Below are positions 3,873 through 63,909 of a DNA stretch of 64,000 nt, piece after piece; position 1 is the stretch's first letter; every line of letters begins with the position of its first letter. Below the pieces are notes generated by a model. It saw nothing but the letters and a program-made list of their open reading frames with translations, had not been told where the DNA came from and ran no database searches. The translations under genes were made by a program, and so were the position numbers. Source of the stretch: Squalus acanthias (taxonomy: Eukaryota); assembly GCA_030390025.1 (NCBI GenBank), contig CM059432.1, forward strand, positions 95,544,001 through 95,608,000. The letters run 5' to 3'.

Positions 3873-5726
3873 AGATTCTGCGACCATGCATTGGAGGTGT
3901 TGTTGTTCGCAGTGGAAAGATGGAGGGCAGTGCTCTACCCAGCAAATGGCAGGAGGCCCTCGCCTCAAGTCTTCCATGCCATGTGGAGGGAGGTACCCAG
4001 CACGCTTCGGGCAGCACTGTGGTCCCCAGGACCCACACACGGTGCAGAAAGAAATTTAATGACCTCACTTGGGTGGTCAGGGTGAGTCAATGCTTCAACA
4101 AATGCTACATACCACCATCTGAACCACAGTCTGCACACACTGCCCAAAGCACCACACCCCCAGCACTCACCCATCAACAATCTCTAACTACCTACATTCA
4201 CACCCACATCTCACACCTTGCACACAATCACATCTATTCAACTATGGCAGGCACATCACCCAAATACATTGCTCCACACTCACTCACAAACTTTCCTTTC
4301 TCTTGCAGGCCAAGCTGGCTCACAACAGAGGGAGCAGGAGCGCACAGACGGGGGACAAGCCGACACCCAACCACTATCTAAGCTGGAGACTCGAGTGCTG
4401 CACATTATTGGGCGCCAGTTGGTAGGCACCGTGGCCACCAGCGACGTTAATCCCCTTGGGGACAACAATGGTATGTTCATCCCTACTCCTTCCTCTCACA
4501 TCCCACTTCCCCCCTCATCCCACAAGCCTTTCGCACTTTCCAGCTAATCATGCTGTATGCATGCATTTCTCCCTTCCTGCCCCCCTCCCCTCACCTTAAC
4601 CCGACTCTTGTGCCTTTATGCTTTCCGATAATGAGCAAGCACCTGAGCAGCCTGTCCCTGAGCGCACCGTTGAGAACGAGGCGGGAGAAGAGGAGGAGGA
4701 AGAAGAAACCGCATCACAGCATGTCTCACCCGCAGGCACCAGCTCAGATACTGGCACTACACGTTCTTTAGAGGCTAGTACAGTAGCGGGATCTGCACAG
4801 GGTGATGCACTGGGGTCGAGCGGGCTGCAGCAAGGCCAGGGGGAATGGGTAGCTCAGGAGTCAGCTCCCCGGAGGGTGAATTCGCGCACGAGTTCTGCTG
4901 CACAGGACTCAGATAAGGATCTCAATGGGGAGGCCATTAGAAGAAGGGAGATGGGCATGCACACGGAGATGATAGGTGCAATGGCAAGGGTGCCTGAGAG
5001 CCTGTCGGCAATGGTAAGGAGTCCGCCTCCAACATTTCACAAAGCTCTGCGCACACCATGGAACCCATCATTTCCAGTCTGCAAAGGATGGTAGACTCTC
5101 AGAGAGACCGTGGCGACCCAGACCTGATGCCGCGCGTGATGGGCGATCTGGCAGCTTCCATTGCAGCACAGGCGGAAGTGATGCAATGTCTCAGTGCTGT
5201 AATGCAGTCTATGTTTGGTGGCATTCAATCTCAGACTGCTCTCATGCAGTCTCAGCTTGATCCAACGCAAGCTCTGACTGCTACCGTCGTGGCTGGGTCT
5301 ACCACCGTCAACTGGGGCTTTCATGGTGTTGCAGCAGGCCAGCAATCTGTGCTCCAACAGATTGCTAGGGATGCTGAGGTGCTGCCCCGGGGCAGTGGCA
5401 GTGGGTCAGTGGAGCAGGAACCTGCTGACCTCTCTCAGGATGACAGCATTCCTGCTCCCACCACTGGCACTCCACCATTGCCCTTGTCGCTGCCTGTCAT
5501 CCAGCCAGCCTAGACTGCTGCCACCCCTGCTGAGGTGATGCAGTCTACAGCCGGGCCTTCCAGGCCCAGAGCTGGTTGAGGGCGTCCTGCAAGGCCATCT
5601 GAAGTCTCCCGCACGGACGCTTCCACCTGCCGTGCTGCAGCCACTGGGCCAACACTTCGTAGGAGCACTAGAGTAGGCAAAGGCACAGTAATGAGAGGCA
5701 CGAAGGGATTGCACAAGGGTGAATAG
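3873..5726 (+). pseudogene. Harbinger Myb/SANT-like DNA-binding helper gene, 3 exons (~3873-4081, 4309-4470, ~4628-5726), disrupted
   Basis: RFCDHALEVLL..V..R..LYP..GRRP...W....RT..CRKKFNDL motif; GTGAGT and GTATGT donors, TTGCAG acceptor; start codon deleted relative to element 3; frameshifts and stops. Confidence 0.8.
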
Positions 5727-5891
5727 GTAATAATGTTGCTGTAAATATGTGTTCATTGATTATTGATAAATTTATTAATTCAGTTTGGATTATTGTGTGG
5801 TGTCTCTCATTTCAGCTTTGTGCTGTGAAATGGCCTGCGACAGGGATGGAATGATGGGGATGTGGTGAGCAACAGGGTTCTGGGGTTTAAT

Positions 5892-7095
5892 TTATTGAAA
5901 CTGCAGTCTGATGAGGCGGTCACGGACCGCCCTTCCAGAAGGCCGATTGAGTGGCTGCCTCCTCCCTCGCTCCTGTTCCTCCTCCTCTTCCTCCTCCTTG
6001 TCTTTCTCTTCCTCCTCATTCTCCTCCTCCTCCTCCTCCTCCTCTCCCTCTTCCTCCTCCTGAGGTGGTCCCGCAATCCCTGGTGGCAAGGGCTGGGCCC
6101 TCATGATGGCCAAGTTGTGGAGCATGCAACAGATCACGACCAAATGGGACACCCGCTCAGCCGAGTACTGGAGGGCCCCTCCCGAGCGGTCAAGGCAGCG
6201 GAACCGTTGCTTGAGCACCCCGATGGTCTGCTCGATGACGTTCCTGGTGGCAGCATGGCTCTCATTATGAGTGCTGGGCAGGAGTTCTGGGGTTGTGGAG
6301 CGGAGTCATGAGCCAGGTGGATAGCGGATAGCCCTTGTCTCCGACCAGCCAGCCGTGAGCTTGACATGGTGGCTGGAAGAGTGCTGGCACACTGGTGTGG
6401 CGCAGATGAAGGCATCATGGCTGCTGCCAGGATAGCAGGTATTGACATTGAGAATTTGCTGTCTGTGGTCGCACACCAACTGCACGTTAAGTGAGTGGTA
6501 GCCTTTGCGGTTACGGAAGATCTCAGGATTGTTATGCGGTGCCCGCAAAGCCACTTGGGTGCAGTCAATGGCACCCTGCACCATGGGGAATCCCACTATC
6601 CTGGCAAAGCCACATGCACATTCATTATGCTTCTCTCTGGTGATGGGGAAGGAAATGTAATCCCTTCTCCTACTGTAGAGAGCCTCTGTGACCTCCCGGA
6701 TGCAGCGATGGACAGCGAACTACGAGATGTTACCTATATCTCCTGTTGCAGACTGGAATGATCCACTAGCGAAGCAATTGAGGGTGACGGTGACCTTGAC
6801 TGACACTGAGAGAGCCGTGGTCACCCTGATCTGAGGCTCAAGGTCTGGTTGCAGGAGATGGCAGAGTTCTGTGACCACCTCCTTGCTGAAGTGGAGCCTT
6901 CTAATACACTGCTCCTCGCTTAATTGGAGGTAGGAGAAGTGCTCTCGGAATACCCTCGGAGGGTAAGTCCTCCTGTTGAGAGCTCTCATTGGCCCTTCTC
7001 TTCCCTCTGGCCACATGTTCCAGTCTTTCTCGCTGCCTCTGCTCCCTCTGCCGTAGATCCTGGAGGGCGAGGTCGACTGCCAGTACAGTGCCCAT
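5892..7095 (-). pseudogene. Harbinger (HARBI1-like) DDE transposase, disrupted
   Basis: Consecutive ORFs: [98 protein letters not shown]; poly-E tail; stop at 6720-6722 plus frameshifts. Confidence 0.92.
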
Positions 7096-11737: not shown

Positions 11738-12147
11738 ATCTCATGTCAGATTCTAATCTGCAAGGTTATTAAAGGAACAATCACTGTACACACTGCCAAT
11801 TGATTTTATTGTCCTACATTGCTACCTAGTTATTACTTTTCTGATGAAAGGTCGGCGACCTGAAACAATGGGCTGGATTTTGTCATTGGGGGGTGGGGGC
11901 AGGTCAGATGGTCGGCAGGTCCCGCCCCTGCCTCCGATGTGAGGCGGGACAATTTGGCGATTTTGCCCTAATTGGGCACTTGATTTCCAGCGTGTGGGAA
12001 GCCCTGGCCCAATGAGTCTTTTGGTCCTGAAACTCGCCTCTGATTACGTCATCTATGCAGTTGCATTTAAGGCCTGCAAGCAGCCTTGGTTCATTTTCTG
12101 CCTTACAACTTTTTTGCTGAGACTTCTGAGGGATTAGTGGTGCAAAC

Positions 12148-14155
12148 ATGGCAAGCTCAAGGCCCAAGTGCGCACCCCGCTTTGCTGAGGACTCCCTCCA
12201 AGCTCTGGTGGAGGGAGCAAGAGCTCAAAAGGAAGTGCTGTTTCCTTCATCTGGGAGGAAAAAACCTCCCCAACAGACCAAAGCTGTGTGGCTGCAAGTG
12301 GCACAGGAGGTCAGTGCCATCTCAATGTGCAGCAGAACCTGGCTGCAGTGCAGAAAGAGGTTTCATGACCTTCTCCGCACAGGAAAAGTGAGTATTACAT
12401 CACCATGGCCCTCAATCTGCCCTCCATCGCCTCTCATCACCAGCACTCTTCATTGTCAACCTCCTCCTCCACATCCCACTTGACCCTTACATCCCTGCAC
12501 CCTTAACCATTCCCTCTCTCTGTATGTTCACATTCACTTAACTATTCGACTATGCAGCCCTCACACTCCCTATCACTGTTATGCTATGACAATAACTTAC
12601 AACACACAGGGAGGACCCTTGGTCTTGGGACCTCACTCCATCTTTGTGTCCTTCTAAGCATCTATGCTATGGATTCTCTACACTCACTCCTTCATTCTCA
12701 CTCAAACTCCACTTGTGTCCCTCATTGCAGGAAAAAAGAGCCCACAATAAGAGGGAAAGGGCGAAGACAGGAGGAGGGCCACCCTCAATAGCCCAGCTCA
12801 CCAACGCAGAGGAGGCGGCCCTCGAGATCGTGGGAGTCGAGGAGGATGTGCAAGTGGGGGATGGACAGATGGGCGCATCAGAGCAAGCTGGTGACAGAAT
12901 AGCTTTTCATCTCTCTCATTGACATTGCATGAGTGACTGATATTGATTCTGATGCTCTAACAGACTGACTTATGATCATCTGCACAATTCAATGTGCATG
13001 CAACGTTTATCTCACATGTCTAACCCATGCCTTTACTTCCCCACAGGACCATCGACAGCCTCCCTCCCCACTGTCCAGGAGGAACAGCCTCAGCCACAAG
13101 ACTCCTCAGAGGAAGCTGCAACCTCTGAGGGCGCAGCGTCACCAGAATTCAGCGCACCCAGCACCAGCGCAGACACTCACACCTCGGTGGGACCTTCGGG
13201 ACATAGAGTAGTGTTGTCACCTGGTGTATCACAGCTCACAAGTGAGCATCAGCAGATGGTGGAGACAGGGACAGCAGTGGAGAGTCCTCGTCGGAGGGTG
13301 CAGGGCGCCCCCAGCTCGGCTCAGCTGCATGTCGACCCTGTGCCTCCGGGTTCATCCAGAAGGAGAGCAGTGCTGGAACTCCAGGAACAGGTGCAGGAGT
13401 CTCTGGCAGGTTTTGTCTCCAGGGTCACTGTGAGTGTGGAGCGGATGGAGGAATCCATCGCTAACATGAGCAGAGCCTTTGTGGAGGCATTGGCGCATGA
13501 ACGCATCACCACGGAAAGGATGGCAACCTCCGTGGAAAGGATGGCTACCTCCATAGTAAGGATGGCTACTGTAGAGGAGAGGATGGCTACGGTAGAGGAG
13601 AGGATGGCTACGGCCATGGAGGAGCTAAGTCGCCAGGGTCTTGAAAACATGGTCATTGTTCAGAATAGACTGACATCTCTGGAGGTGCGATGGTCAGCTA
13701 TTGAGCAGAGAAACCAGACCTTCATGGAAGTTCTCTGGAGTAGGACTACCAGTGCAGAAATGGGTCCTCATGGCCCCCCTGAAGTGCAGCAAGGTGCTGT
13801 CAAGCCACTTGCTAGCTCTGAAGTGGGGCTGACCCATGAGAGGGATGTTGGTGGCAGACAACAAGGAAGTGGGGGCTCCTCTCCAAGCGCTCACGTGACC
13901 ATGCCACTGCAAAGCCCTCGGTCAGAGCCCCACCAGAGTCCTCACCCAACTGAGATCGGCGTCTCAGCCCCTGCACAGCCGCAGGAACAGCAGACTGTTG
14001 GTGAGCCCTCACAGGCTCGCAACCCCAGAGGACACCCACCAAAGGTGTCGAGGCAGGAGCAGCATGAAAGTGAGCAAGGGGCCTCCACATCTGCTGAAGC
14101 CACAGGGGAAGCACCACATAGGAGCATGCGTAAGAGGAAGATAAAGCACAAGTAG
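12148..14155 (+). CDS. Harbinger Myb/SANT-like DNA-binding protein, intact spliced ORF (exons 12148-12387, 12731-12890, 13047-14155; 502 aa)
   Basis: Exon 1 APRFAEDSLQALVEG..VLFP..RK..KAVWLQVAQEVSA..RTWLQCRKRFHDL; GT-AG introns of phase 0 and 1 join into ORF 12992-14155 without stops (1509 nt); heptad repeat; basic C-terminus RKRKIKHK. Confidence 0.85.
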
Positions 14156-14413
14156 TCACAAGGGTAGTCACTTGGGTGTTCTGTTGTGTTTAATTGTGAA
14201 ATGCCATCCGTGAATTAATGTTATAAAATGACTTGATGGCAAACTGTTGAAGTTGTGGGCTGTGTCATTTCGCAAATGGGACTTCCACATTGAGGGCTCA
14301 GGGCGACTTGGAATTGTCAGTATGGTGGTCAGAATGATAGGAAGCCGCAGGTTCTTGTCCATTGTCGATGGTCTGGTAAGAAGGTGTGAGCCAAATGTGT
14401 TTGAGTGGGCAGC

Positions 14414-15617
14414 CTAAGCAAATCTGGCCAACATCAGTGCATCCCTTGCATCCCGGGCAGCAATGTGCTCGCGTGATGCTGCCACTGGTTGATGCACCTC
14501 CGCAAGCTGTTCGTTGTCGCTCTCCTCCTCCTCCTCTTCCTCCTCCTCCTCATCCTCATCCTCATCTGAGGAGGCTATGCGATGAGCCACTTGTACCTCA
14601 GGCAGCTGCAAGCCACGATGCTGTGCCATGTTGTGAAGTGCACGGCAGACCACGACGATTCTGGAGACCCTGGCTGCTGAGTACTGCAGGGCTCCACCTG
14701 ATCTATCAAGGCATCTGAATCGTATCTTCAGCAAGCCGATGGTTTGCTCGATTATGGATCTGGTGAAAATGTGGCTGGAGTTGTAGCGCTCCTCAGCTTC
14801 ATTGGATGGCCTCCTTAACGGCGTAATTAGCCACTTCTTCAGGGGATAGCCCTTGTCTCCAAGTAGCCATCCGCAAAGTTGGTCTGGCGGACTGAAGAGT
14901 GGAGGCACACTAGACTGGCGCAGGATGAAGGAGTCATGGCAACTGCCAGGGTACTTAGCGCAAACATGCAAAATTTCCTTATTGTGGTTACACACCAGCT
15001 GCACGTTGAGAGAGTGGAAGCCCTTGCGGTTGAAAAAAATACCTGGATTGTGATGGGGTGCCTTAAGGGCCACATGTGTGCAGTCTACGACGCCCTGCAC
15101 CCTTGGAAAGCCTGCCAGATTAGCAAATCCAACCACACGTGCGGTTACACTTGCTTGATCCTTGGAGAAGTTGATGTAATTGTGCACTTAGGCAAAGAGG
15201 GCATCGGTTACCTGCGTGATGCAAGTGTGTGCGGCCGCCTGGGAGATACTGCTGATGTCTGCTGTTGATCCCTGGAATGAGCCTGAAGCAAAAAAATTGA
15301 GTGCGGTGGTGACTTTGACAGCCACTGGTAAGGGATGTCCACCCGCTCCTCTGGGCTCCAGGTCTTGCTGCAGCATTGCGCAGATGTCACCCTACTACCT
15401 CTCGCGAAACCTTGTTTTGGGGGTATCGCCTGCGGCGACGTCCTTCCCTGCACTGGCGCCTTCTGGCCTGTGCAGCTTCAGGTGGGTGAGCAGCAGGTTG
15501 GCGCTCCTGTTGTTGCTCCTGCTGGTGGTGCTGCTGTTGTTCCGGGTTCTGCTGCTGCCGCGGCTGGTCTTCGTCTGAATCTGAGGTCCAGGAGGAAAGG
15601 AAATAAATGGTTCCCAT
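14414..15617 (-). pseudogene. Harbinger (HARBI1-like) DDE transposase, disrupted
   Basis: VDCTHV, GDKGYP and IIEQTIG catalytic motifs intact; about 20 codons missing after YPQNKV, frameshift near 15390, premature TAA at 15188-15190; poly-E tail. Confidence 0.93.
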
Positions 15618-16704
15618 GCTGCAGGTATATACCTCAGTTGAGGAAGCGCTCAGTCAAGGTAGGTGGGGAGAGGAGTTTCCCAGGAGGTCACAGTGGAGAC
15701 GGATCTCAGCTTCAAAACTTCCAAAATCAGTAAACCTGCAAAAAGTTCTCCCAGACCGGAGAAAAGAAAGTTCTGCCACCTGCAAATGATTGTGGAAAAC
15801 GCCTTTTTTATGGTGGAGCTGCAGCTGTTAGTAAGCCATCCACTTTTGAGCCCGCCAGGATTAACTGGCGTGTTCCAGGGGAGACATGCAGCACGGGGGA
15901 AATGTGTTAAACTCTGAAAGGCCTCTCAAAATGGCATTATAGAGGCACTTAAGTGGTTGTTAAGTGCCTTAAGGGCCTATCCCGCCTCTTGGACGCGGGA
16001 CCGAAATGGGGTCTGAACGCCCGCACTTGGCAAAGTTTCTCAGAGGTGGGTTGGAGGCGGGATCGGAGCCTGACGCCATTTTTGGTAACTTTCCCACCTG
16101 ACCCGCCTTCAAACCCGCCTCCTCGGGCCTGGCAAAATCCAGCCCATTAACTCCGTTTCTCTCTCCACAGATGCTGCCTGACCTGCTGATTATTTCCAGC
16201 ATTTTCTGTTTTTATTTCAGATTTCCAGCATCCGTAGTATTTTGCTTTTGTATTACTTTCCATCCCAGTTTAATGTGACATTGCTTCAAAGCACAAGGAA
16301 TAAATTCTAATTTTTCTTTTACTTCAGTGGAAGATCATCTGCTGTTCTCTTAAGTTATTGGTCATTCACATTTGTGAAGTAAATATTGCAGCTCACCTTC
16401 TTGTCAGCCATGGCTCAAATGTTAGCACTCACACCTCTGAGTTAGAAGGGGTGGGTTCAAGTCCCACTCCAGAGTCTTGAGCACAAAATCTAGGCTAATA
16501 TTCCAATGCAGTACCGAGGGAGTGTTGCACTGTCAGTAGTTGTGTCTTATGGATGAGCTGTTAAACTGAGCCCCTGTCTGCCATTTCATGTGGACATAAA
16601 AGATCCTACAACACTACTTTGATAGAAGAGCAGTGGTATTCTTCGGTGTCCTGTCCAACATTTATCCCTCAACCAACACCTAAAACGGATGATCTAGTCA
16701 TTTA

Positions 16705-17551
16705 ATATAAAATAAAAACAGAAAATGCTGGAGATACTCAGCAGGTCAGGCAGCATCTGTGAAGAGAGAAACAGAGTTAATGGCCCAGAAATTGATCTCG
16801 CTCTGTTCCCGCGGGGGTAAGCCTTTCCCGCGATGTCTCACCTCGCTTATGCTTTTTCTGATCCAGCTCGCACGAAATTGATGTTCCAGACATCAGCTGT
16901 GCTGGGCTTGCGTATCCCACAGGCGCAGTTAATTCGTGCGAGCTGTGGGAACACGTGACTCAGTTAGAGCCAATGGCAGCACACCATCTTTCATTCATAG
17001 CTTTCACAACAAGTGCTGTGAAAGCTATGAATCTATACCCCCCCAAAAGAACAGCTAAACCTCAATTAAATTTAAAAAAAAAAATCACATTAATAAAATA
17101 AGTATAGTTAAATAAATTAACCATTTTAAACAAAAAATTAAATTTTTGAAAAAATTTAAAATCTTTTAAAAAGTTATAAAAATAAACTTACCTTTCTTTA
17201 AAGTCTCTAAAAAAGATATACCTGTTGAAAAAAATTCAAAATAATACTTAATTAACTACTTACCTTGTTAAAAGAGGGTCTTACGCCTCCTTTCTTTATG
17301 TGCAAAATCTTCCATACTTACCTGCGCGTTCAAAGTACTAAGTGCACTGCGTGCGCGCAGCCTGTAGCGCGCACGCGGTTCACCTAGGAACCGCCCCCTT
17401 TTGAAATCACCAAGTGCCGGTTTTCAGCGCATGCGCAGGGCATGCAGAAAACCGGCAATTGGAGTGGGAATACGCGAGAGTATGCAGTGCGTACTCTCGC
17501 GTCCCAGGATCAATTTTCGGCCCATTGTTTCAGGTCGATGACCTTTCGTCT
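16705..17551 (-). mobile_element. Penelope-like 3' end (~100 bp, hammerhead-containing), split by a MITE
   Basis: Matches 40242-40335; TAGTCATTTA direct repeat at 16695-16704 and 17554-17563. Confidence 0.8.
16782..17523. mobile_element. Non-autonomous Harbinger-like MITE (742 bp)
   Basis: TIRs GGCCCAGAAATTGATC / GATCAATTTTCGGCCC; flanks AAT and ATT; AT-rich core shared with 43213-43968. Confidence 0.85.
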
Positions 17552-18494
17552 TTTAGTCATTTATTTGATTGCTGTTTGTGGGACCTTGCTGTGTGCAAAT
17601 TGGCTGCTGCGTTTACTACACTACAACAGTGATTACACTTCAAAATTACTTAATTGACTGTAAAGCACTTTGGAATGACCTGAGGTTGTGAAAGGCGCTG
17701 TACAATTGCAAGTATTTATTTTTCTTCTATTTCATTTGCTTAAATAAGTAGAAATTGGAATGGAGAATGTGGTTGCCTATCTGCCAAGCATTTTGTGTTT
17801 TGAAAAATAATATTGATTTTTTTGTTAGGGACATTTGTTGTAGAGGATTATTAGTCAGCTGTTATTCCTGTGGCTACATTCTAGTTAGAAAAGAAAGAGA
17901 AAACCAGTTGATGGCATGAAACAAAAGGTAGCGGGTGAGGTTATGACTGTTTCTACCAAGAGGTGGTGCTAATTCTACTTAACTTTGTTGATACAGAACT
18001 GCAAATTTCACTAAAAAGGGCTTGGCATTAATAGCTAAAAAATGACTATAACTTCAGTACAAATAAATCACTAAACATGACCAGAATAATAATGTGAAGA
18101 CAGTTTTTAAAAATGTAGGTGAATCCTATGCTGTATTGTGCTATATAATTTATGTTAGGGTATTGCTTGCACAGAATCTGGTCATTTTTGATAACATTGT
18201 TTATATGACATCGTTATGTAGTGTTAAAACTGCTGCTGACTAGCTTTATGTTGTAACAACTACTTGTCTACATTAGACGACGTGATGTCAGAGGAAGGGT
18301 TGACCATTAGTCATCAAGATCAAGGAATCTGTCAACAAATTCTGATATTGAAAAATTAAACTAATTATTGAGATTGGTCAGCAAAATGTGGTTATTTCTA
18401 TTTACAATGCAGCAACAATTCATGGAAATTATTCACTAAACTAATTTAGTTTGTGGCACACAGTAGTCATTAACAAAAAAATCAGGGATTTTTA

Positions 18495-37044: not shown

Positions 37045-37807
37045 GGCCTAGAATTTGTGGTCAGCAGCGAAGCAAAGGCGTTCGCCGCTGGCCCAGAGGT
37101 ATGCTTCGTACAAAGATCTTGCAATCTGTGTCGAGAATTTCGGGTTTTCTGACGCGTAATTGAAATCAACGGAAGTTAATGGGCATTCCCAGCGAAGAGC
37201 TGCTGTGAAGTCAACAAGCTGTCTAAACAGCCAATCAAAACGCAGAATTCTCTCAGACCGCGAACCAGGAAGTGGGTAAGCTCCTAAAATTTGAACCTTT
37301 TAAAAATGTTGGAGAGAGCAAAACAAAGATTGGGGCTCTCGCATGGGAAAAAGGCAAACCTGAAATAAAGATGAACAAACTTTAAAAAAAAATTAAACTT
37401 TTTTTTTAAAGTTTCTTAAAATTTTGACACTGCGCAAAATTAAATTAGTTTTTCAGGGCCGTAACCTTTGTTTAGCAGTCAATACGCTGCTAAAACCCCA
37501 GTTACACCTAATCCAAAAGGGTCTAACTTTTAATGGAGTATTTAACAGGGTAATTACTGCGGAAGAGCCAAAGGTTTCGTCAGTTTCCATGATTTGAGAG
37601 ATTTCACTGATTGCCGGTTCTGTGGGGTGGGAGGGGGGCGGGGGTCACAGCGCTGCCTGTGGAGGAGCAGTGAATGACAGGCCGCAACTTCAGGATTTCC
37701 GTATTAGGCTGCGCATGCGCTAATTCCTGAAGTTGCGGTCAGTTTCAAAGGTGAAATGACTGTGAACGCTGCCAGTTCGCCGTCATCAGGACCGCAAATT
37801 CCGGGCC
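37045..37807. mobile_element. Non-autonomous Harbinger-like MITE (763 bp)
   Basis: TIRs GGCCTAGAATTTGTGGTC / GACCGCAAATTCCGGGCC; flanks TAT and TTA; AT-rich centre. Confidence 0.78.
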
Positions 37808-40241: not shown

Positions 40242-40758
40242 CAACAAAAACAAAATGCTGGAAACACTCAGCAGGCCAGGCAGTATCCGTGGAGAGAGAA
40301 ACAGAGTTAACGTTTCAGGTCTGGGACCCTTCGTCAGAACTGGAAAAAGTTAGAGATGTAACTGATTTTAAGCAGGTGCAGAGGCAGGGAAAAGGGGGAG
40401 GGAGGAAAGAACAAAAGGGACGGTCTGTGATAGGGTGGAAGGCAGGAGTGGTTAAATGTTGCAAATAGGAATGGCAGAATCATCAACAGCTACCGCCTGG
40501 AAAAAATAGGAGCAGAGGTTATGGTCTGAAATTGTTGAACTCGATGTTGAGTCCAGAAGGCTGTAAAGTGCCTAATCGAAAGATGAGGTGCTGTTCCTCG
40601 AGCTTACATTGAGCTTCGTTGGAAAAGTGTAAGAGGCCGAGGACGGAGAGGTGGGAGTGGCGCGGGGAATTAAAGTGACAGGCGACTGAAAGCTCGGTGT
40701 CACCCTTACGGACTGAACGGAGGTGTTCCGCAAAGCAGTCACCCAACCACTTGGTGTC
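40242..40758 (-). mobile_element. Penelope-like retroelement 3' fragment (GIY-YIG endonuclease C-terminus plus 3' end)
   Basis: ORF 40519-40779: LGDCFAEHLRSVRK..VACHFNS..EEQHLIFRLGTLQPSGLNIEF. Confidence 0.88.
40305..40341 (-). ncRNA. Minimal type I hammerhead ribozyme motif
   Basis: AGTT-CTGACGA-AGGGTC(CCA)GACCT-GAAAC-GTT-AACT: core boxes CUGANGA and GAAA, stem II, stem I AGTT/AACT, palindromic ACGT stem III, GUU triplet; Penelope-like elements are known to carry such motifs. Confidence 0.72.
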
Positions 40759-41286
40759 CATAGCTTGAGATGTATGCAAATTAATAGGAACATTGATTTT
40801 TACTCACCGTGGGCAGCGAGACTTCTGCCATATATTATGTTTATTAAGGAAGAAACAAGTTTAAATTGTACATTCAAATATTTTGCACTCAAACAAAATC
40901 TTCATCCAACTGCTTAGAACCACATGTTCCTGTGTTGTGGAGAAATCTTATCTTAATACATTAATTATGAAGGAAACACCATTTCTTTGACATCTTTAGT
41001 CAACAAATTTGGAAAAAGCATTTACTGTAAGTCAGAATTAAGTCGTCAAAAATGTCCTGTGGAAAAATATTTTCTAATGGGTGTTCTTTCAATCTAAGAT
41101 CCAATTTAAACCTCTCTAAGTCTGTATTGCCTTCATTTTAGGTGTGCCATAATCAAATATATTTAGTTTTGTTCGGTTTTAATTTGCATGATTGCTTCTG
41201 GCCAGGCTTCAACCTGCAAAGTATGAAGTCAGCATTAGTTTTCTTTCCCTCCATTAATCTAATGTTTTTTTAACTTTCCTTTGTAG

Positions 41287-43212: not shown

Positions 43213-43968
43213 GGCCCAGATATTCCGATCGCAGGCCTCCCTCGGGCGGAGGGCTGCGATCTGGAAAAATCTGCGCCAATACCGGAGGGCTCCCGGAGGC
43301 GCAGAGTTCCGCTGCTGGGCCTCTCCAAACTGCCGGTGCGCAGGGCCCACGTATCCCAGAGGCGCAGGCGGTTCGCAGCGTCCCTGGGATCACGTGGGCC
43401 ATGGGGAGCCAATCAGAGAAGGGAATCTCCCTTCATACATTTGACAGGAAGACCGGTCAAATATATGAATAGAGATCACCCCCAAAACATAGTAAAACTT
43501 TAAATAAATTTTTAAAAAAACATCACATTTTTAAAATGACTTGAAATTACATAAATTAACTATTTTAAACAAAAATTTAAATTTTTGAAAAAAGTAATTA
43601 AAGTTTTTAACGGGGCTAAAAATAAACTTACCTTTCTTTAAAGTATTTTTAAATGATAAATCAGTGGAAATTAAAAAAAAACTTTTTTCAACTCTTATCC
43701 TGGTAAAAGCAAGCCTTACGCTGCCTTTTACCAGGCGCAAGAATTGTAAGTGTTTTCTGTGGGCGGAGGGTCTCCAAAAAGTGGAACTATCTGCCCGCAG
43801 AGGCCCTGCTCCCGGGCAGTCGGATAATCTGTCGAGAGCTTTCTTGACAGATCGGAAATGCCGGTTTCCAGCGCATGCGCAGTGCATGCCTAAAACCGGC
43901 ATTTCCTGATGTCCCTACGGGTGAGTACACAGCGCGTACACACCCGTAGGGATCGGAATTTCTGCACC
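43213..43968. mobile_element. Non-autonomous Harbinger-like MITE (756 bp)
   Basis: TIRs GGCCCAGATATTCCGATC / GATCGGAATTTCTGCACC; AAT TSD on both sides; related to 16782-17523. Confidence 0.85.
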
Positions 43969-50194: not shown

Positions 50195-51680
50195 TAATCT
50201 GTTCATGTTGCTAAGGACGATTATAATTAATTATTATACTATTCTAGTATGTCTATTTCTGATGCTTTGTGTTCAAATTGTAAATAAGTACTTAAGTTAT
50301 TGTATCTTACAAAAGCTCAATTCTGTGCTTTAGCTGGTTATACTGATTTAATTACTACAAGTACACGGAACAGAATGTGTGCCATTCAACCTTTATAGGA
50401 GACAGATTTAAAAATACAGTATCTGGATTGTAGGGGTATGATTTGTTTAACAATTGAAAACTGTATTTTAAAAACAGTACTTTAATAATCTGAAATTGTA
50501 ACAATTATACAAAAAGGAGTTTTCTTTACAGTTTCAAAGTTCCCAAGTCTTTTCACCATTGCTATTTTGAGTCTGGGCTGATTCTGCTCAACTTCAGCTC
50601 AGCCACTGGCTGATGATGGGCCCCAGTTTTGACATCATTATCGAATGCAAAGGGTCCTTTTGAGTGATCAGGCCACATTTCATCTCTGTTCCATAACACT
50701 TTAGAAATGTGAAGCCTGCTTAAAAGTCAGGCCACGGGTTTGGGAAACTCACTAAATTATCAGAAGGTACTGTAGCTACAACATTCTTGGAATTTGATTC
50801 CTATGTGCGAGTCTGGTTTAGTACAGAAGGATTTCTTCACCGAATGGTCAGTTAGAGAATTGAATGTTACCAGGAAATATTCCCCAGCAAAATTGACATA
50901 AAGATAGATCAACGGAGGCATGAGGCTGGGGAGAAGGCATTGGGGTCCCACAAATCACCTCCAGCAATGATCATCACTCAGTCTCGCCTAAAGTTAAGGT
51001 CCTGCACTATCCAATACCAATTCTGGTTGACTGATCAAATGGCCCAGTTGACTAATTGGCACAGAAAATTTAATTGCGCCCACTGGGGATGAGCCAGATA
51101 TCTGACATGTTTTGAGAGTCTCCAACCAAACTACTGAGAAATCGCAAGATATAGGCCTCAATTTTAATAGCCCTGAGGGAGGCGGGTCTGTAGCGAAAAT
51201 TGGAAAAAATGGCTTCAGACACCCAACCCGCCTCCATCCCGCCCCCACCCAATTTTCGTGAGTGTCTGTTCAGCCGCTCCCAAACTGACCCGTCTGGAAC
51301 CGGTGGGACAGGTAGTTAAGGCAGTTAAGAGCCTGTTAGCTGCCTTGCTAATCCTATTTTGATAGTGGTTTCCTATTTTCGTGCTTCTGGCTCCTGTTTC
51401 CCATCTTGTCAGAAACAGGCCAGCTTCAGGGAGACGAGTTGCTGGAGGACATGATTTGTAGTCATTGGTGGAGCACTTTAAAAGCGCCCCTGAAACATGG
51501 CTGACATTCAAATACAACAACTTTGCTGTTGTAGGTATGGGATAAGATTTTGCACATCTACTGACCTTGACTGTTCAAACTGACCAGCCATCTGCTATGT
51601 GACCTGAATGGAATAATTTCAGGCCACTTCGACTGTGCGCTTGCAAACTTGTTGCCTCAAATGTAATTTATAGCAATGAG

Positions 51681-51876
51681 ATGGGAAAAATTTATGTCCT
51701 CTCATCCTGATCCTCATAATCAGAGGACCAGCAGCCGCGTGACTCAGCGCATATCTTCCTGGGAAGAGGAGGATGAGGGGCGCCTTGCGTGCCCTGTTGT
51801 GACCAATGTAGCATCCTTCCAGTTCATTGTTGCCTGTCAAGCAGGGTATGCACACAGCCATGCCACATTTGCATAA
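51681..51876 (+). pseudogene. Transposase stub: N-terminal ~20 codons joined to C-terminal ~45 codons
   Basis: MGKIYVLSS*SS*SEDQQPR aligns to MGTIYFLSSWTSDSDEDQPR; VTQRISSWEEEDE..FIVACQAGYA..ATFA* aligns to [26 protein letters not shown] of element 2. Confidence 0.75.
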
Positions 51877-52156
51877 GCTTACTCTTCAACCATAGGTGGC
51901 GATCATATGGCTCTGTAATTGTAGGCGACATTAGTCCACCGTCATACATCTTCTCTGCCATACCTGGTTATTTCCTATAACTTTCAGCATTACAAAAACA
52001 AGTCGTCCTGAGCCCTTAATGCGCATTTGCCATTTCCCAGAACACAAAGGCCACACAATCAACTGTTTGCCATCATTTTTCTTTACCACATGACAAAAGC
52101 ATCACAAACCAATAACCGTCAGACAAAAAAAAACACCCACGTGAGTCCCCTTGCGA

Positions 52157-54020
52157 CTACATATGCTTAATCTTTCTCTTATGTGTGCTTCTACGTGGTG
52201 CTACCCCTGTGGCTTCAGCAGATGTAGAGGCACCTTGCTGACTAGGATGCTGCGCCTGCTTACACGCCTTTGACGGGCGTCCTCTGGGTTTGGGAGCCTG
52301 GGAGGGCTCTCAACAGTCTGCTCTTCCTGCGACTGTGCAGGGGCTGAAACGGCCATCTCAGTTGGCTCTGCAAAGTGGGTCTCTGACCAAGGGCTCCACA
52401 GTGGCATGGTCGTGTGAGCGCTTGGAGAGGAGCCCACACTTCCTTGTGTCCTGCCAGCAACATCCCTCTCATAGGTCAGCCGCACCTCAGTGCTGGCAAG
52501 TGGCTGGAGAGCACCTTGCTGCACTTCAGGGGGACCATGAGGACCTGTATCTGGCAGTCCTCATCACAAGGATGTCCATGAAGCTCTGGTCCCCCTGCTT
52601 AATAGCTGCCCATCTCTCCTCCAGAGATGACAATCTATTTTGAACATTCGCCATGTTTTCCTGACTCTGGCGATTTATTTCCTCCATGGTGGTAGCCAGC
52701 CTTTCCACTGAGGTAGCCAGCCTTTCCACGGAGGTTGCCATCCTATCCATGGTGGTGCGTTCATGCACCATTGCCTCCACCACGGCAGTGCTGATGTTAG
52801 AGATGGACTCCTCCATTCTCTCCACACTCGCACTAACCCTGGTGGCAAACCCTTCGGAGACTCTTGCACTTGTTCCTGTATTTCCTGAACAGCTCTTTTT
52901 CTGGATGGCCCCAGAGGCACAGCGTCTGCATGCAGCTCAGCAGAGCTGGGAGAGCCCTGCGACCTCCGCCGAGGACTCTCCACTGCTGTCTCTGTCTCCA
53001 CCATCTGCTGATGCTCACTTGTGCGCTGTGATAGACCAGGTGGCAACACTACTCTAACTCGCGATGGCACCACCTGCGTGTGCGTTGCTGCGCTGGTGCT
53101 GGGTGCGCTGAGTCCTGGTGATGCTGCTCCCTCAGAGGCTTCAGGTTCCTCTGAGGAGTTGTCTGGCTCTTTGTCCTGGATCGTGGGGAGGGTGGCGCTC
53201 GATGGTCCTGTGGGAGAGTAAAGGCATTTTTAGACATCTGATATTGATGCAGCAGACACAGCCTTTTGTGCAGATGATACATCGAGATTCTCTATGAACA
53301 TCATATGCCATTGCAGTCAATCACTAAATGTCAATGAGAGGGATAAAACTCTATTATGTCACCAGCTTCCTCTAGTGTGCCCGTCTCTCCATCGCCCACT
53401 TCCAGGTCCTCGCCACCTCCAACAATTTAGTGTGCAGCCTCCTCAGCCCTTGTCAACGTTGATAGGGTAGGTGTTCCTCCTCCAGTCAGTGCGATCTCCC
53501 TCTTATTTTGGGCTATCTTTTCCTGCAAGGATGGACACAAGCGGAGTTTCAACCACCGAGATGGAGTGAGTGTGAAGAATCCCTACCATAGAACCTTTGA
53601 GGGAGACGAAGATGGGGTGAGGTGCCAAGAGGAAGCTAGCTCCCTGTGGGTTGTTAGTTGTTGTCACTGCATAACAGTGAGAGCGAGTGTAAGGGGTGCA
53701 TAGGCAGGATGCTGAAGTGATTCAGTACAGAGACAGAGCTGGATAGGTAAGGATGCAAGGGAAGTAAGGGTAAGGTGGTATGTGGAGGAGCAGACTTACA
53801 ACGCAGAGTGCTGGTGAAGAGAAGAGAAGGGAAGCAGATTTGAAGGTAAGTGAGATGGGATACTCACTTTTGATGTTCGCACAAGATCATTAAACCGTTT
53901 CCTGCACTGGATCCAGGAGCGTGAACAAATGGACCTTGCACTGACCTCCTGAGCAATGCCTTGGTCTGCTGAGGAGGTTTCCTCTGGCCATCAGGAGGGA
54001 AGAGAATCTCCCAGCGCCCT
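52157..54020 (-). pseudogene. Harbinger Myb/SANT-like gene, disrupted (exons 54020-53868 partial, 53522-53363, 53207-52157)
   Basis: ILFPPDGQRKPPQQTKA..AQEVSARSICSRSWIQCRKRFNDL; same 160-nt exon 2 and intron phases as element 2; frameshifts and stops. Confidence 0.85.
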
Positions 54021-54115
54021 CAAAGAAGGTGTTAAATGCTTAGAGGCACAGGGCAAGGCTAGAATACTCAATGAGTACTTTGTATCGGTGTTTACTAAGG
54101 AGGTGGATGCTGACA

Positions 54116-54177
54116 CTATTTTGCCGGTTATTAAAGAATTCCGGTTGATTAGGTGCCATTTAAACGAGAGTTTACTG
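54116..54177. mobile_element. Isolated 62-bp end of the Tigger-like MITE
   Basis: Inverted near-identical copy (2 mismatches) of 54355-54416, followed by TA. Confidence 0.8.
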
Positions 54178-54354
54178 TAGTATTAACTAGGCACTGCCTG
54201 GCTGGAAGCAATGTTGCAAATACTGGTCTCCGCTGCGATATAAAAGTACTATAAGTATGTGGCCCAGAAATGAGGCTGGATACAGAGCAGAGTGGACGAA
54301 GATCATCTACTGATTATGTCCTTTAAGTTACCAATTAAATTGTATAACTAAATA

Positions 54355-60104: not shown

Positions 60105-61957
60105 ATGGTTGACCATGGGAGAGGGCGGCCTCCCAGGTTTTTGGACGCTGCACTGGAGATCTTGGTGGAGGAGGTAGAAAGGAAGATAGTTGTTCTGTAT
60201 CCTCGGGTGGGGGGGCGGGGGCACGGGCACGGGGCAGATACAGGAGGCCCTCTAGACACACGATGAGAAGGCAGTGGGAACTGATAGCCGGGGTGGTTAA
60301 TGCCAGGCGTGTAGCCCCAAGGGCCTGTATGCAGTACCGGAAGAATTTTAATGACCTCACACGAGTGGTTAAGGTCAGTGAATGCATCTTCAAATGCCAC
60401 ATCCTACCAACTGCATCACTAGCCTCAGCCATTGTTGAATTCACCACACCCCCATCACTCCCCTACCAACAATCGTTATCAATCAGGACTCGTATCTACG
60501 TTATATGCTTCACCTCATCCTCACGCACTTCGCTCTGTTTCAAGCCTCACACCCACATCTCACAACTTGCACACGCTACCAGCTGTTCAACCGTGACGGC
60601 CACATCACCCAAACAAATTGCATGACACTCAGACTCATTTCCCTCTCTCTTGCAGGAGAAGGTGGGAGCAATCTGAGGCAGAAGGAACTAACTGGAGGGG
60701 GGAGAGGCGCGCCTGCATGTTCTGACCCCCATCGAGGAGATGGTGCTGGCCATTGTGGGAAGGGCCTTTGCTGAGGCCGTGGCCACCCATGGGGCTGAAT
60801 CCATTGAAGATGCCTGTATCCTCATATCTAATCCTCCTTCTCACATCCCACTTCTCCCTCATTCCTAACTTTCTTGTGACTTGCAAGCTGCACTACTTAC
60901 TTTCTCCCCTCACCACAACTCAACCCATGTCGCTTTTTCATTTCAGATACTCATGAACTGCAATCTGCCCAGGCAGTGGTGGAAGAGCAGGAAGACAGTG
61001 AAGATGAAGACAGACCATCACTTGATATCACAGTCACGGCCACCAGCTAAGAGACTGACACTGCACATATTTTAGAGGATAGCATCGAGGCGGGATCTGC
61101 ATGTGGTGGGACACAAGGCACAAGTGCACTGCAGCCAGGGCAAGGAGAGAAGGAGAGCGCACGTGGTGGAGGGCGAGGTTGCAGACTAACTCAGATGAGG
61201 ACTTTGATGGGCCAGGCTACAGAAAAAGGCTGATTGGTATCCATTCAAAATGCTTGGTGCATTGGGAAGCCTGCCAGAAAGCCTGTGTGCAATGTTGAGC
61301 ATAGAGGAGTCCGGCATCAACTTGGTACAGCGTGTTGCGCAGAGCTTAGAGCCCATTCTTTCCAGCATGGAACGGGTGACTAACTCCAACACACTTGTGG
61401 AACCAACCATCATGCAGCGTCTGATGGCCGATGTTTCCGCTTCCATTGCAGCAAAAGCAGCAGCCACCCAACGTTTGAGTGCTACAGTGGAAGCTCAGAC
61501 TGCTGCCATCATGGCTCTGGATACCAGTGTTCAGAGGGGATTCGAGGGTGTCACAGCAGTCCAACAATCTGTTCTCCAACAGATTACTAGGATTGCTGAA
61601 GCGCTGCCCTGGGTGAGTGGCAATGGCTCAATGGAGCACGAACCTGCTGTCCTCTCTCTGGATGACAGCATTTGTGCTTGCACCCCTGCTACTCCGCCAG
61701 TGCCTTTGCTATTGCCTCTCAGCCAGCCAGCCCAGACTGCTGCCGCCCATGCCGAGATGGTGCCGTCTGAAGCCAGGCCTTCTAGGCCTAGAGCTGCTCA
61801 AGGTCTTCCTTCAAAACTATCGGCAGTCTCCTCAACTGAAGGTCAGCTGCCTTCCACCAGCCATGTTGCAGCCACTGGGGTAACACCTTGTAGGAGCACG
61901 AGGACAGCCAAAGGTGCACGGAAGACAGGCACTAAGGGAAAGCACAAGGGTGATTAG
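60105..61957 (+). pseudogene. Harbinger Myb/SANT-like gene, 3 exons (60105-60373, 60656-~60815, 60947-61957), disrupted
   Basis: MVDHGRGRPPRFLDAALEILVEEV..VLYP..RRQWELIAGVVNA..QYRKNFNDL; ORF 61250-61957 homologous to 5058-5726. Confidence 0.82.
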
Positions 61958-62129
61958 TTTATTTTTGTATGCAATATGGCATGGTTTAATTCATAAATTT
62001 GCATTAGAATGTGTATTTTGTGTTGGATTTTATTTTTACATTGTGGCTAAGAGGACAATGTGATGGTCAGTGACAGAGGGACGGTAAGGAGTATGGGATT
62101 GTTGGTGAATGGGGAATTGGGGTTGAGGT

Positions 62130-62292
62130 CAACGTTCCCTTTAAGCTGTGTGGCCGCGCAGTGCTCTGTAGGTCACACGCAGCCGATGAGCTGGCTTTTA
62201 AATAGAAAAAACGCACATGTGCTGAATCTTGAATGGCCCACGCAGCCCATTAAAGGGGCCACGCAGGCCAAAATTAATTAGAGGGAACATCG
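62130..62292. mobile_element. hAT-type MITE (163 bp)
   Basis: TIRs CAACGTTCCCTTTAA / TTAGAGGGAACATCG; perfect 8-bp TSD GTTGAGGT. Confidence 0.88.
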
Positions 62293-62299
62293 GTTGAGG

Positions 62300-63909
62300 T
62301 TACTGGTATCGCTGTTGAATTAGTTGTTCACATACAGCCTGGGCAGAAAGGGGCTGTCTAAGTTGCAGCCTCCCTTCCTCTTCCTCCTCTTTTGCCTCCT
62401 CCTCCTCATGCTCCTGCTCCTCAGCTTCTCGCCTTATAGGTGGTGGCAAGTGCTGTTCCGTCATGATGGCAAGGTTGTGCAGCATGTAGCATACCACCAC
62501 AAATCTTGAGACTGCAGGGCTCCTCCAGAGTGGTCCAGGCAGCGGAATCGTTGCTTCAGGATGCCAATGGTTTGCTCTATCAGATTACTTGTGGCAGCAT
62601 GGCTCTCATTGTATGCCTGCTGCGTACGTGTGTGGGTTGCGAACAGGACTCATGAGCCATGCCGTCAGCGGATAGCCCTTGTTGCCCAGAAGCCGCCATT
62701 TGGTTTGTTGTGGTAGCTGAAATACAGCAGGCCCAGAGGACGCCGCAGAATGAAGGCATCATGACTGCTACCAGGATACCGGGCATTGACCTGTATGATG
62801 CACTGCCTATGGTCACACACCAGCTGCACGTTGAGGGAGTGGAATCTCTTTTGGTTCAGGTACATGACAGAGTTGACATGAGGCAGACGCAAAGCAATGT
62901 GTGTGCGGTCAATGGCACCCTGGGGAAGCATGCAATCCTTGTGCTCACTCTGCCTGCTTCTCTAGCAACAGGGAATGAAATGAACTTATCGCTCTTTGAA
63001 TAGAGAGCCCCAGTAACCTCCCTTGTGCAACAGTGCACTGCAAACTGCGAGATGTTGCTAATATCTCCAGCAGCAGCCTGGAAGGAGCCAGACACACACG
63101 TTCATCGTCATGGTCACCTTCACAGCCACTGGCAATGCGATTCTTGCCCTGCTCTGAGGTTGGAATTGTGGCTGCAGCAGGTGGCAGATTTCAGTGACAG
63201 CCTCCTTAGTGAAGCACAGACGTCGCAGACATTGGTTGTCACTCAGGTTCAGGTAGGCGAATTGAGCCCTGAACACCCTCGTGTCCTAACTTGCACCAAG
63301 TCCCGTTCGCCCATCACCCCTATGCTCGCTGACCTACATTGGCTCCCGGTTAAGCAGCGCCTCGATTTCAAAATTCTCATCCTTGTTTTCAAATCCCTCC
63401 ATGGCCTCGCCCTTTCCTATCTCTCTAATCTCCTTCAGCCACACAACCCCCCCCCAAGATATCTGCGCTCCTCTAATTTTGCCCTCTTGAGCATCCCTGA
63501 TTATAATCGCTCAACCTTTGGTGGCCGTGCCTTCTGTTGCCTAAGCCCTAAGGTCTGGAATTCCCTGCCTAAACCTATCCGCCTCGCTACCTCTCTTTCC
63601 TCCTTTAAGACGCTCCTTAAAACCTACCTCTTTGACCAAGCCTTTGGTCACATGCCCTAATTTATCCTTATGTGGATCGGTGTCAAATTTTTTGTCTTAA
63701 AATACTCCTGTGCAGCGCCTTGGGACGTTTTACTACGTTAAAGGCGCTATATAAATACAAGTTGTTGTTGTGGGCGGATGTGGCCTCCTGCTGAGACCCC
63801 TTCTCCCCCTCCTCCTCCCTCTTCTAGCAGTTTGTCCTGCTCTGCGTGGCCTCTGCTCATTCTCCCAGTCATGTTCAATTCCAAGAGGAAGGCTTACCAG
63901 TGCACCCAT
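62300..63909 (-). pseudogene. Harbinger DDE transposase, disrupted and split by L2
   Basis: MGALVSLPL..; [74 protein letters not shown]. Confidence 0.9.
63280..63771 (+). mobile_element. L2-clade LINE 3' fragment inserted in the transposase
   Basis: RVLTCTKSRSPITPMLADLHWLPVKQRLDFKIL..; tail ATAAATACAAGTTGTTGTTG. Confidence 0.9.

Follow-up and report, generated by a model that had tools for sequence, protein, structure and literature searches.

A Harbinger insertion hot spot at a Penelope-type hammerhead motif in Squalus acanthias, with unequal flanking triplets that may carry donor sequence

Why should two unrelated DNA transposons interrupt a retroelement at exactly the same three nucleotides, and why should the triplets that flank them be unequal? 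Both questions are raised by a 64,000-nucleotide stretch of the Squalus acanthias genome (GenBank assembly GCA_030390025.1, contig CM059432.1, positions 95,544,001 to 95,608,000, forward strand; "the window", whose numbering is used below), in which a 4,276-bp Harbinger-type element (element 2) and a 742-bp miniature inverted-repeat transposable element (MITE) each split a copy of a Penelope-type retroelement at the predicted cleavage triplet of its hammerhead ribozyme-like motif. A sequence-only reading of the window had described the two insertions and proposed that this triplet is a preferred landing pad, forming a targeting system that also destroys the ribozyme. Following the site through the genome, we find that the triplet is a true insertion hot spot for Harbinger-type elements and MITEs. 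We consider it likely that the hot spot arises from an extended target preference of these elements and that the mismatched flanks arise from a 3-nt overhang brought along from the donor site.

Two separate insertions at one triplet

On rereading the coordinates, both inserts lay exactly at the triplet, and the uninterrupted Penelope end was recovered on the minus strand with its GTT at 40311-40309. The two loci and the intact motif comprise the following features (TIR, terminal inverted repeat):

11831..11839, plus strand: direct repeat of host insert 1, left copy, TATTACTTT (right copy 16251-16259)
11840..11866, plus strand: 5' half of the truncated hammerhead motif of host 1 (CTGATGA, stem II, GAAAC), most of the stem I 5' strand missing
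11867..11869, plus strand: left flanking triplet AAT of locus 1, foreign to the host consensus GTT/ATT and putatively of donor origin
11870..16145, strand not assigned: Harbinger-type element 2, 4,276 bp, TIR GGGCTGGATTTTG
12130..12483, plus strand: Myb/SANT-like exon of element 2 (PF13873, Myb_DNA-bind_5, E 1.5e-10)
12953..14155, plus strand: 400-codon open frame in element 2, probably the last exon of the Myb-like gene
14414..15187, minus strand: DDE nuclease frame of element 2 (PF13359, DDE_Tnp_4, E 2e-35), open over 257 codons only
16146..16148, plus strand: right flanking triplet ATT of locus 1, the CpG-decayed form of the host GTT
16149..16250, plus strand: 3' part of host 1 (AACT, the stem I 3' strand, then the 3' end of the element)
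16695..16704, plus strand: direct repeat of host insert 2, TAGTCATTTA (other copy 17554-17563)
16705..16778, minus strand: 3' part of host 2
16779..16781, minus strand: triplet ATT to the right of the MITE, in host orientation
16782..17523, strand not assigned: 742-bp MITE of an AWT-preferring family, TIRs GGCCCAGAAATTGATC / GGGCCGAAAATTGATC
17524..17526, minus strand: triplet AAT to the left of the MITE, in host orientation, putatively of donor origin
17527..17553, minus strand: 5' half of host 2, with its truncation point within the CUGA core
40305..40341, minus strand: intact minimal type I hammerhead-like motif, as read from the sequence, with its predicted cleavage triplet

Element 2 has both hallmarks of PIF/Harbinger elements, a DDE transposase (its frame also matches PF04827, E 8e-11) and a second gene with a Myb/SANT domain, and its TIRs agree at 15/16 positions, those of the MITE at 13/16. 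Because the inserts are unrelated (no BLAST homology between element 2 and the MITE) and their hosts differ in truncation point and direct repeat, the two insertions were separate events, as first supposed, and not one duplicated insertion. Both hosts are 5'-truncated, host 1 lacking most of the stem I 5' strand and host 2 the CU of its CUGA core, and both were already incomplete as ribozymes before they were hit. A point overlooked in the initial description is that the flanking triplets are unequal at both loci, AAT on the left and ATT on the right, with the 3-nt spacing maintained.

At two further hammerhead sites (L441, L442), relatives about 90% identical to element 2 are inserted in the opposite orientation. 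The element 2 insertion is shared and old, since a contig from another organism bridges its left junction; the triplet is unreadable in that contig. Summed contig depth for the MITE family was about 100-fold lower in runs from two other organisms than in organism A, which hints weakly at a lineage-specific burst.

A genome-wide hot spot

Exact-pattern counts over the 3.71-Gb genome returned 69,319 intact 17-mer host sites, 1,924 left junctions and 2,313 right junctions, with 0-3 matches for reversed-pattern controls. The triplet is thus filled in 2.7-3.2% of copies, an approximate occupancy given that left and right patterns differ in stringency. By comparison, the next 23 host positions downstream together received 146 insertions, and 31 positions further downstream received 37 (anchor count at least about 16,000), none of which lay at the two ATT triplets there as read from the listing. 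The expectation that this triplet would surpass other AWT sites was therefore borne out. On contig C1 up to 181 Mb, 71 of 99 left junctions could be paired with a right junction, and the inserts fell into 28 clusters in both orientations, which indicates independent insertions. Pair counts were taken from strict pairing, as a loose TIR-pair scan and a fuzzy right-junction match gave false pairs; 28/99 left junctions in the C1 set, 8/30 and 7/30 in two 30-locus sets, and 3/17 AAT-left loci stayed unpaired. With some 60,000 ends counted for each TIR type, enrichment at the site over the genome average is about 490x for the family with GGSCCRRAAATT ends (family A) and about 610x for the family with GGGCTGGATTTT ends (family B), based on family shares counted by hand among the left junctions listed.

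At unselected insertions, both families display a palindromic preference that reaches past the triplet, A-N-A-Y(AWT)R-T-N-T for family A and roughly R-A-S-W-C(NWN)G-W-S-T-Y for family B (triplet in brackets), in line with the extended target consensus which the initial reading had mentioned for Harbinger and which is reported for the superfamily in PMC2836001. The host site, TGAAAC(GTT)AACTC, fits both consensuses, fits them better after CpG decay to ATT, and is present in about 70,000 copies. A position matrix was derived from 44 and 26 de-duplicated unselected insertions, with recurrent sites collapsed and L359, L127, L150 and L252 left out for bad pairing or a position inside the host. Along the host 3' end it ranks the triplet first for family B and second for family A; its predicted enrichments, with wide bootstrap ranges, are 42-111x (GTT) and 417-1112x (ATT) for family B, as against 11-18x (GTT) and 262-429x (ATT) for family A.

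Some further observations concern these families and their hosts. Three host copies are doubly hit (L199, L201, L396): the GTT triplet is filled, and another insert follows within a few bases downstream. Just two TIR types account for about 120,000 TIR ends in this genome; PMC9179366 did not find Harbinger in elephant shark and called for checking of other species. Among the GGGCTGGATTTT matches listed, 14/100 ends share one identical 13-nt flank and gave no partner end by pairing (L121, L123-L126, L134, L135, L142, L143), and probably belong to a composite or tandem repeat that includes the TIR.

Flanking triplets foreign to the host are one-sided and family-specific

We then considered whether the unequal flanks of the window loci recur. 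The 71 strict pairs included 22 GTT/GTT, 22 ATT/ATT, 7 ATT/GTT and 5 GTT/ATT combinations. The other 15 contained a triplet that does not belong to the host, confined to one side in 14. When GTT was present on at least one side, 19 of 41 pairs were unequal. Over all junctions, RAT triplets were counted at 108 of the 1,924 left junctions and 51 of the 2,313 right ones, compared to 170 per 69,319 intact sites, and their composition differed: AAT:GAT was 89:11 on the left (100 listed), 45:6 on the right, and 18:82 at intact sites (100 listed). Were these triplets mutated host sites, AAT and GAT should occur in proportion to ATT and GTT, i.e., at about 38:43 on the left and 34:49 on the right (odds ratios 9 and 11, p<1e-7). 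AAT reaches 5.0% of left and 1.9% of right junctions, about 10x this internal mutation control. A direct comparison to intact copies would suggest a roughly 100-fold AAT excess, which we rejected as overstated since filled sites are ATT-enriched; the approximately 10-fold shift in AAT:GAT is the fair control.

To resolve both flanks of AAT-bearing loci, we used two sets with no overlap by eye, 33 loci with AAT on the left and 21 with AAT on the right. The opposite triplet was ATT (21), GTT (10), TAT (1) or AAT (1) in the first set, and ATT (16), GTT (3), ACT (1) or AAT (1) in the second. AAT was hence one-sided in 52 of 54 resolved rows, 13 of which pair it with GTT. Its frequency follows the family: AAT on the left reaches about 16% in the AWT family (GGSCCRRAAATT) versus 1.5% in the GGGCTGGATTTT family, and unselected duplications are AWT in 75/98 versus 11/76 copies, respectively. 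The change is confined to the triplet, the adjoining base being altered in 0/22 and 1/30 flanks. Unequal triplets also occur at unselected sites, in 17/49 insertions of the AWT family (8 of them AAT/ATT swaps) and 10/38 of other elements, and identical 3-bp target-site duplications (TSDs) were present in 33/51 and 29/41 copies of two families.

Other foreign triplets among the junctions listed were ATG (5/100) and GTG (2/100) on the right, and TTT (5/99) on the left. Foreign triplets on the left nearly always keep the element-adjacent T, a hint that pairing of the element-proximal base matters. Elsewhere in the window, a MITE at 37045-37807 has the unequal flanking triplets TAT/TTA.

A donor overhang as the possible source of unequal flanks

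The excess of donor TSD bases at one flank is a statistical signal, from which we infer the retention of an overhang. In the proposed mechanism, the transposase would make a staggered cut inside the old duplication of the donor, so that each excised end would take the old triplet along in single-stranded form, probably as a 5' overhang, as in piggyBac. After strand transfer, the old triplet would sit opposite the target triplet, and trimming or correction would usually restore a clean duplication. In about 25-40% of insertions, an estimate from the 19/41 unequal GTT-bearing pairs that allows for CpG decay, the overhang would instead be ligated as a heteroduplex and fixed, with the donor triplet on one flank and the target triplet on the other; both window loci, with AAT/ATT, would be such cases. 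Frequent clean GTT/GTT (22/71) and rare AAT/AAT (2/54) fit a 5' overhang and a nick on the donor strand. Donor-triplet carry-over during Harbinger integration seems to us quite probable, a piggyBac-like behaviour that the mPing model had anticipated. With somewhat more reserve, we lean towards the more general proposition that vertebrate Harbinger transposases integrate like piggyBac, with a 5' overhang of the old triplet and at least a quarter of natural insertions fixing it on one side.

Several results weigh against this combination of target preference and donor overhang. Weighted for hosts that are 90% GTT, the matrix predicts enrichments of about 180x (family B) and 36x (family A), as opposed to the 610x and 490x observed. 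The flank preference drawn up for both TIR families leaves a 3-14 fold excess unexplained. It also scores a TGT site 8 nt downstream at 6.2 bits compared with 6.6 for the triplet, yet this site received only 4/30 sampled downstream insertions. Since the matrix both under-predicts the triplet and overrates its neighbour, a factor beyond independent positions contributes; background CpG depletion and the small training sets probably explain part of the excess. As for the flanks, the 2.6-fold left/right asymmetry of AAT (p=4e-8) is not predicted by simple heteroduplex replication, and the carry-over signal lacks a clean replication at two other recurrent sites: at a site in a CR1-type retroelement all 7 resolved pairs are perfect duplications, and at a host TCT site the left triplet deviates in 9/23 filled copies (intact 4/50), where pairing is poor and the cases include TTT/TTT and an apparent AAT/AAT. 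The donor itself was not traced, and public contigs searched for an empty orthologous allele gave no readable triplet. In yeast, 45/46 insertions of TCA-flanked mPing had TTA/TAA at the sequenced flank (PMC4561436), so that carry-over was rare there. Insertion flanks are tabulated in the supplements of PMC4561436 and PMC2836001 and may be informative on this point.

Alternative explanations

Donor-type triplets could have entered after insertion, through gene conversion or when an end cut by transposase was repaired with another family member as template. This too would yield one-sided, family-specific triplets, and copy numbers are very high, with about 60,000 ends per TIR type. Each such event must break off after precisely three non-homologous bases and return to the original flank, which was found intact, and a 3-nt donor overhang is independently documented for the superfamily (PMC4561436, PMC11254759). 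We regard this route as improbable.

Alternatively, the same hot spot could have acquired its mismatches through quasi-palindrome correction, in which synthesis switches template from one inverted end to the other, or through re-ligation of the element in flipped orientation at its site, converting ATT/ATT to AAT/ATT or ATT/AAT. These two classes are perfect palindromes and the commonest mismatched ones, with 37 of the 54 resolved rows. The same process applied to GTT/GTT predicts AAC, which was found at 0/200 of the junctions listed (p about 1e-4 under the assumed rate), and it cannot yield AAT/GTT (10), GTT/AAT (3), CAT/GTT, GTT/CAT or TTT/GTT. This explanation is already largely contradicted, and we rate it a little lower than conversion.

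A third possibility concerns the hot spot itself and develops the one put forward originally: targeting specific to the ribozyme, which might act by RNA, R-loop or structure and would inactivate Penelope copies. Besides the excess over the matrix noted above, the triplet surpasses its 23 downstream positions together about 13-fold, and insertion does separate stem I from the core. Both window hosts, for their part, were already incomplete. Beyond these two loci, a site in the reverse transcriptase (RT) coding region of a long interspersed nuclear element (LINE) has 7,674 matches, and among the first 100 of them 30 are filled (L420-L439), about 10 times the hammerhead occupancy; from its RT translation we take this LINE to be of the CR1 family. 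In addition, the decayed form of the hammerhead site is favoured: 38/81 filled left RTT junctions are ATT copies compared to 10/100 intact sites listed (odds ratio 8). In ATT copies, CpG decay has broken the 15.2-16.2 pair. Age-driven CpG decay as the source of this ATT excess was rejected, as a control CpG was decayed in 4/57 filled copies versus 6/38, with no rise in filled ones. Filled copies are also not more often complete, with core and stem I both present in 54/146 filled and 36/79 intact copies (p=0.25). Finally, the hammerhead site accounted for 0/100 GGGCTGGATTTT ends and 2/100 GGSCCRRAAATT ends (one element) among matches listed, and for <2% of family ends. Given the fuller CR1 site, the preference for ATT copies and the equal hit rate of truncated motifs, a system aimed at the ribozyme is unsupported and very unlikely. 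The hammerhead hot spot likely reflects a fit to the elements' extended DNA target preference and not the identity of the ribozyme; it is a genuine but ordinary outcome of that preference.

The least credible option, that AAT stems from ordinary mutation, pre-mutated targets or assembly error, or that the window loci copy one event, can draw on a flank divergence of 3.9% per site (T>A 7/610) and on two of about 96 AAT-left loci lying only 5.7 kb apart in one window, which is unusual and unexplained and may be chance, and is already contradicted by the roughly 8:1 ratio of AAT to GAT, the rarity of AAT/AAT, the tenfold difference in AAT rate between families, and the unrelated inserts in differently truncated hosts with different direct repeats.

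The host retroelement and its motif

The intact motif reads AGTT-CTGACGA-A-GGGTC CCA GACCT-GAAAC-GTT-AACT on the minus strand and, judged from sequence, contains the CUGANGA and GAAA boxes, stems I and II, and an NUH triplet. It lies 185 nt downstream of the coding end of its host, for which one further feature was read:

40522..40770, minus strand: C-terminal coding piece of the host retroelement, with homologues that carry RVT_1 or PF26215

The closest homologue of this piece is a skate protein, and Pfam named no domain on the decayed host pieces. YIGET and CxxxxCxxC motifs occur upstream in host loci L234 and L440, and we take these motifs to be those of Penelope-like elements; a complete host ORF, with RT followed by a GIY-YIG endonuclease, was not recovered. 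A minimal hammerhead in the terminal repeat of a Penelope-like host agrees with the features given in PMC4209133, with one difference: the 10.1-11.1 pair, usually G-C in that source, is A-U or G-U in the host copies read. Rfam hammerhead models gave no match over the window at the gathering threshold, nor locally by E-value, and the minimum free energy fold retains stem II without forming the hammerhead (z -1.3). For a tested minimal hammerhead, PMC4209133 describes no activity as a monomer and low activity as a dimer. In many host copies (L009, L014, L016, L019), the sequence starts at the hammerhead, with an inverted piece of that end in front of it, which suggests that 5' inversion or truncation recurs at the motif.

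The window also holds other Harbinger-related elements, as well as a MITE, at about 5250-6900, 43213-43950, 51154-54300 and 61480-63000; their identity to element 2 or to the MITE above is 66-76%.

Relation to known transposition systems

The elements share with PIF/Harbinger a DDE nuclease and a Myb/SANT gene, TIRs, a 3-bp duplication and a palindromic preference beyond the triplet (9 bp for mPing and 15 bp for vertebrate Harbinger in PMC2836001). What differs here is that this preference turns fixed positions in abundant retroelements into recurrent hot spots, with about 3% and 30% occupancy. Their duplications, AWT in 75/98 copies of family A and mixed NWN in family B, do not follow the TWA of the PIF/Harbinger group sensu Han et al. 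2015, and by triplet alone are closer to the ANT and C(TNA)G groups described in PMC4482050.

A close likeness to the proposed overhang is found in mPing/Pong. Staggered cleavage of the mPing TSD with 5' overhangs has been proposed (PMC4561436), and excised mPing brings its donor TTA/TAA into Cas9 cuts (TATSI, PMC11254759), i.e., the element would leave with 3-nt overhangs derived from the donor. In these reports, the donor triplet was seen at Cas9 breaks joined by non-homologous end joining, with free transposition described as leaving intact duplications, whereas the one-sided donor-type triplets described here occur at natural, consensus-matching insertions in a vertebrate genome.

Searches of the literature turned up neither a report of Harbinger insertions into Penelope hammerheads nor one of donor triplets on a single side of natural Harbinger insertions, which is weak evidence of absence given that most subscription journals and Repbase notes were outside the search. 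For piggyBac, Li and colleagues are said to have reported mutation at non-canonical sites in 2013. In piggyBac, the overhang is the old TSD and is placed to pair with the new target (PMC7351741), much as in the mechanism proposed here. However, piggyBac belongs to another superfamily and uses a fixed 4-nt TTAA and a hairpin intermediate, while with the degenerate triplet of the present elements mismatches would be common.

Implications

Hitherto, mPing excision footprints have been the main basis for inferring how PIF/Harbinger transposases join their ends to the target. With about 2,000 independent insertions at a single site whose ancestral sequence is known, the question becomes countable, and the value of the hammerhead site is that of a natural reporter of carry-over. 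If carry-over is real, annotation that requires identical TSDs would miss or misdate up to a third of these elements, target logos would lean toward the consensus of the donor, and base changes could be left at free insertions by Pong/Harbinger engineering tools. The TSD of these elements would then be partly inherited from the donor, each insertion could write point changes into its host, and high-copy repeats with a known ancestral triplet would preserve a fossil record of how strands were transferred and how mismatches were repaired in the germline.

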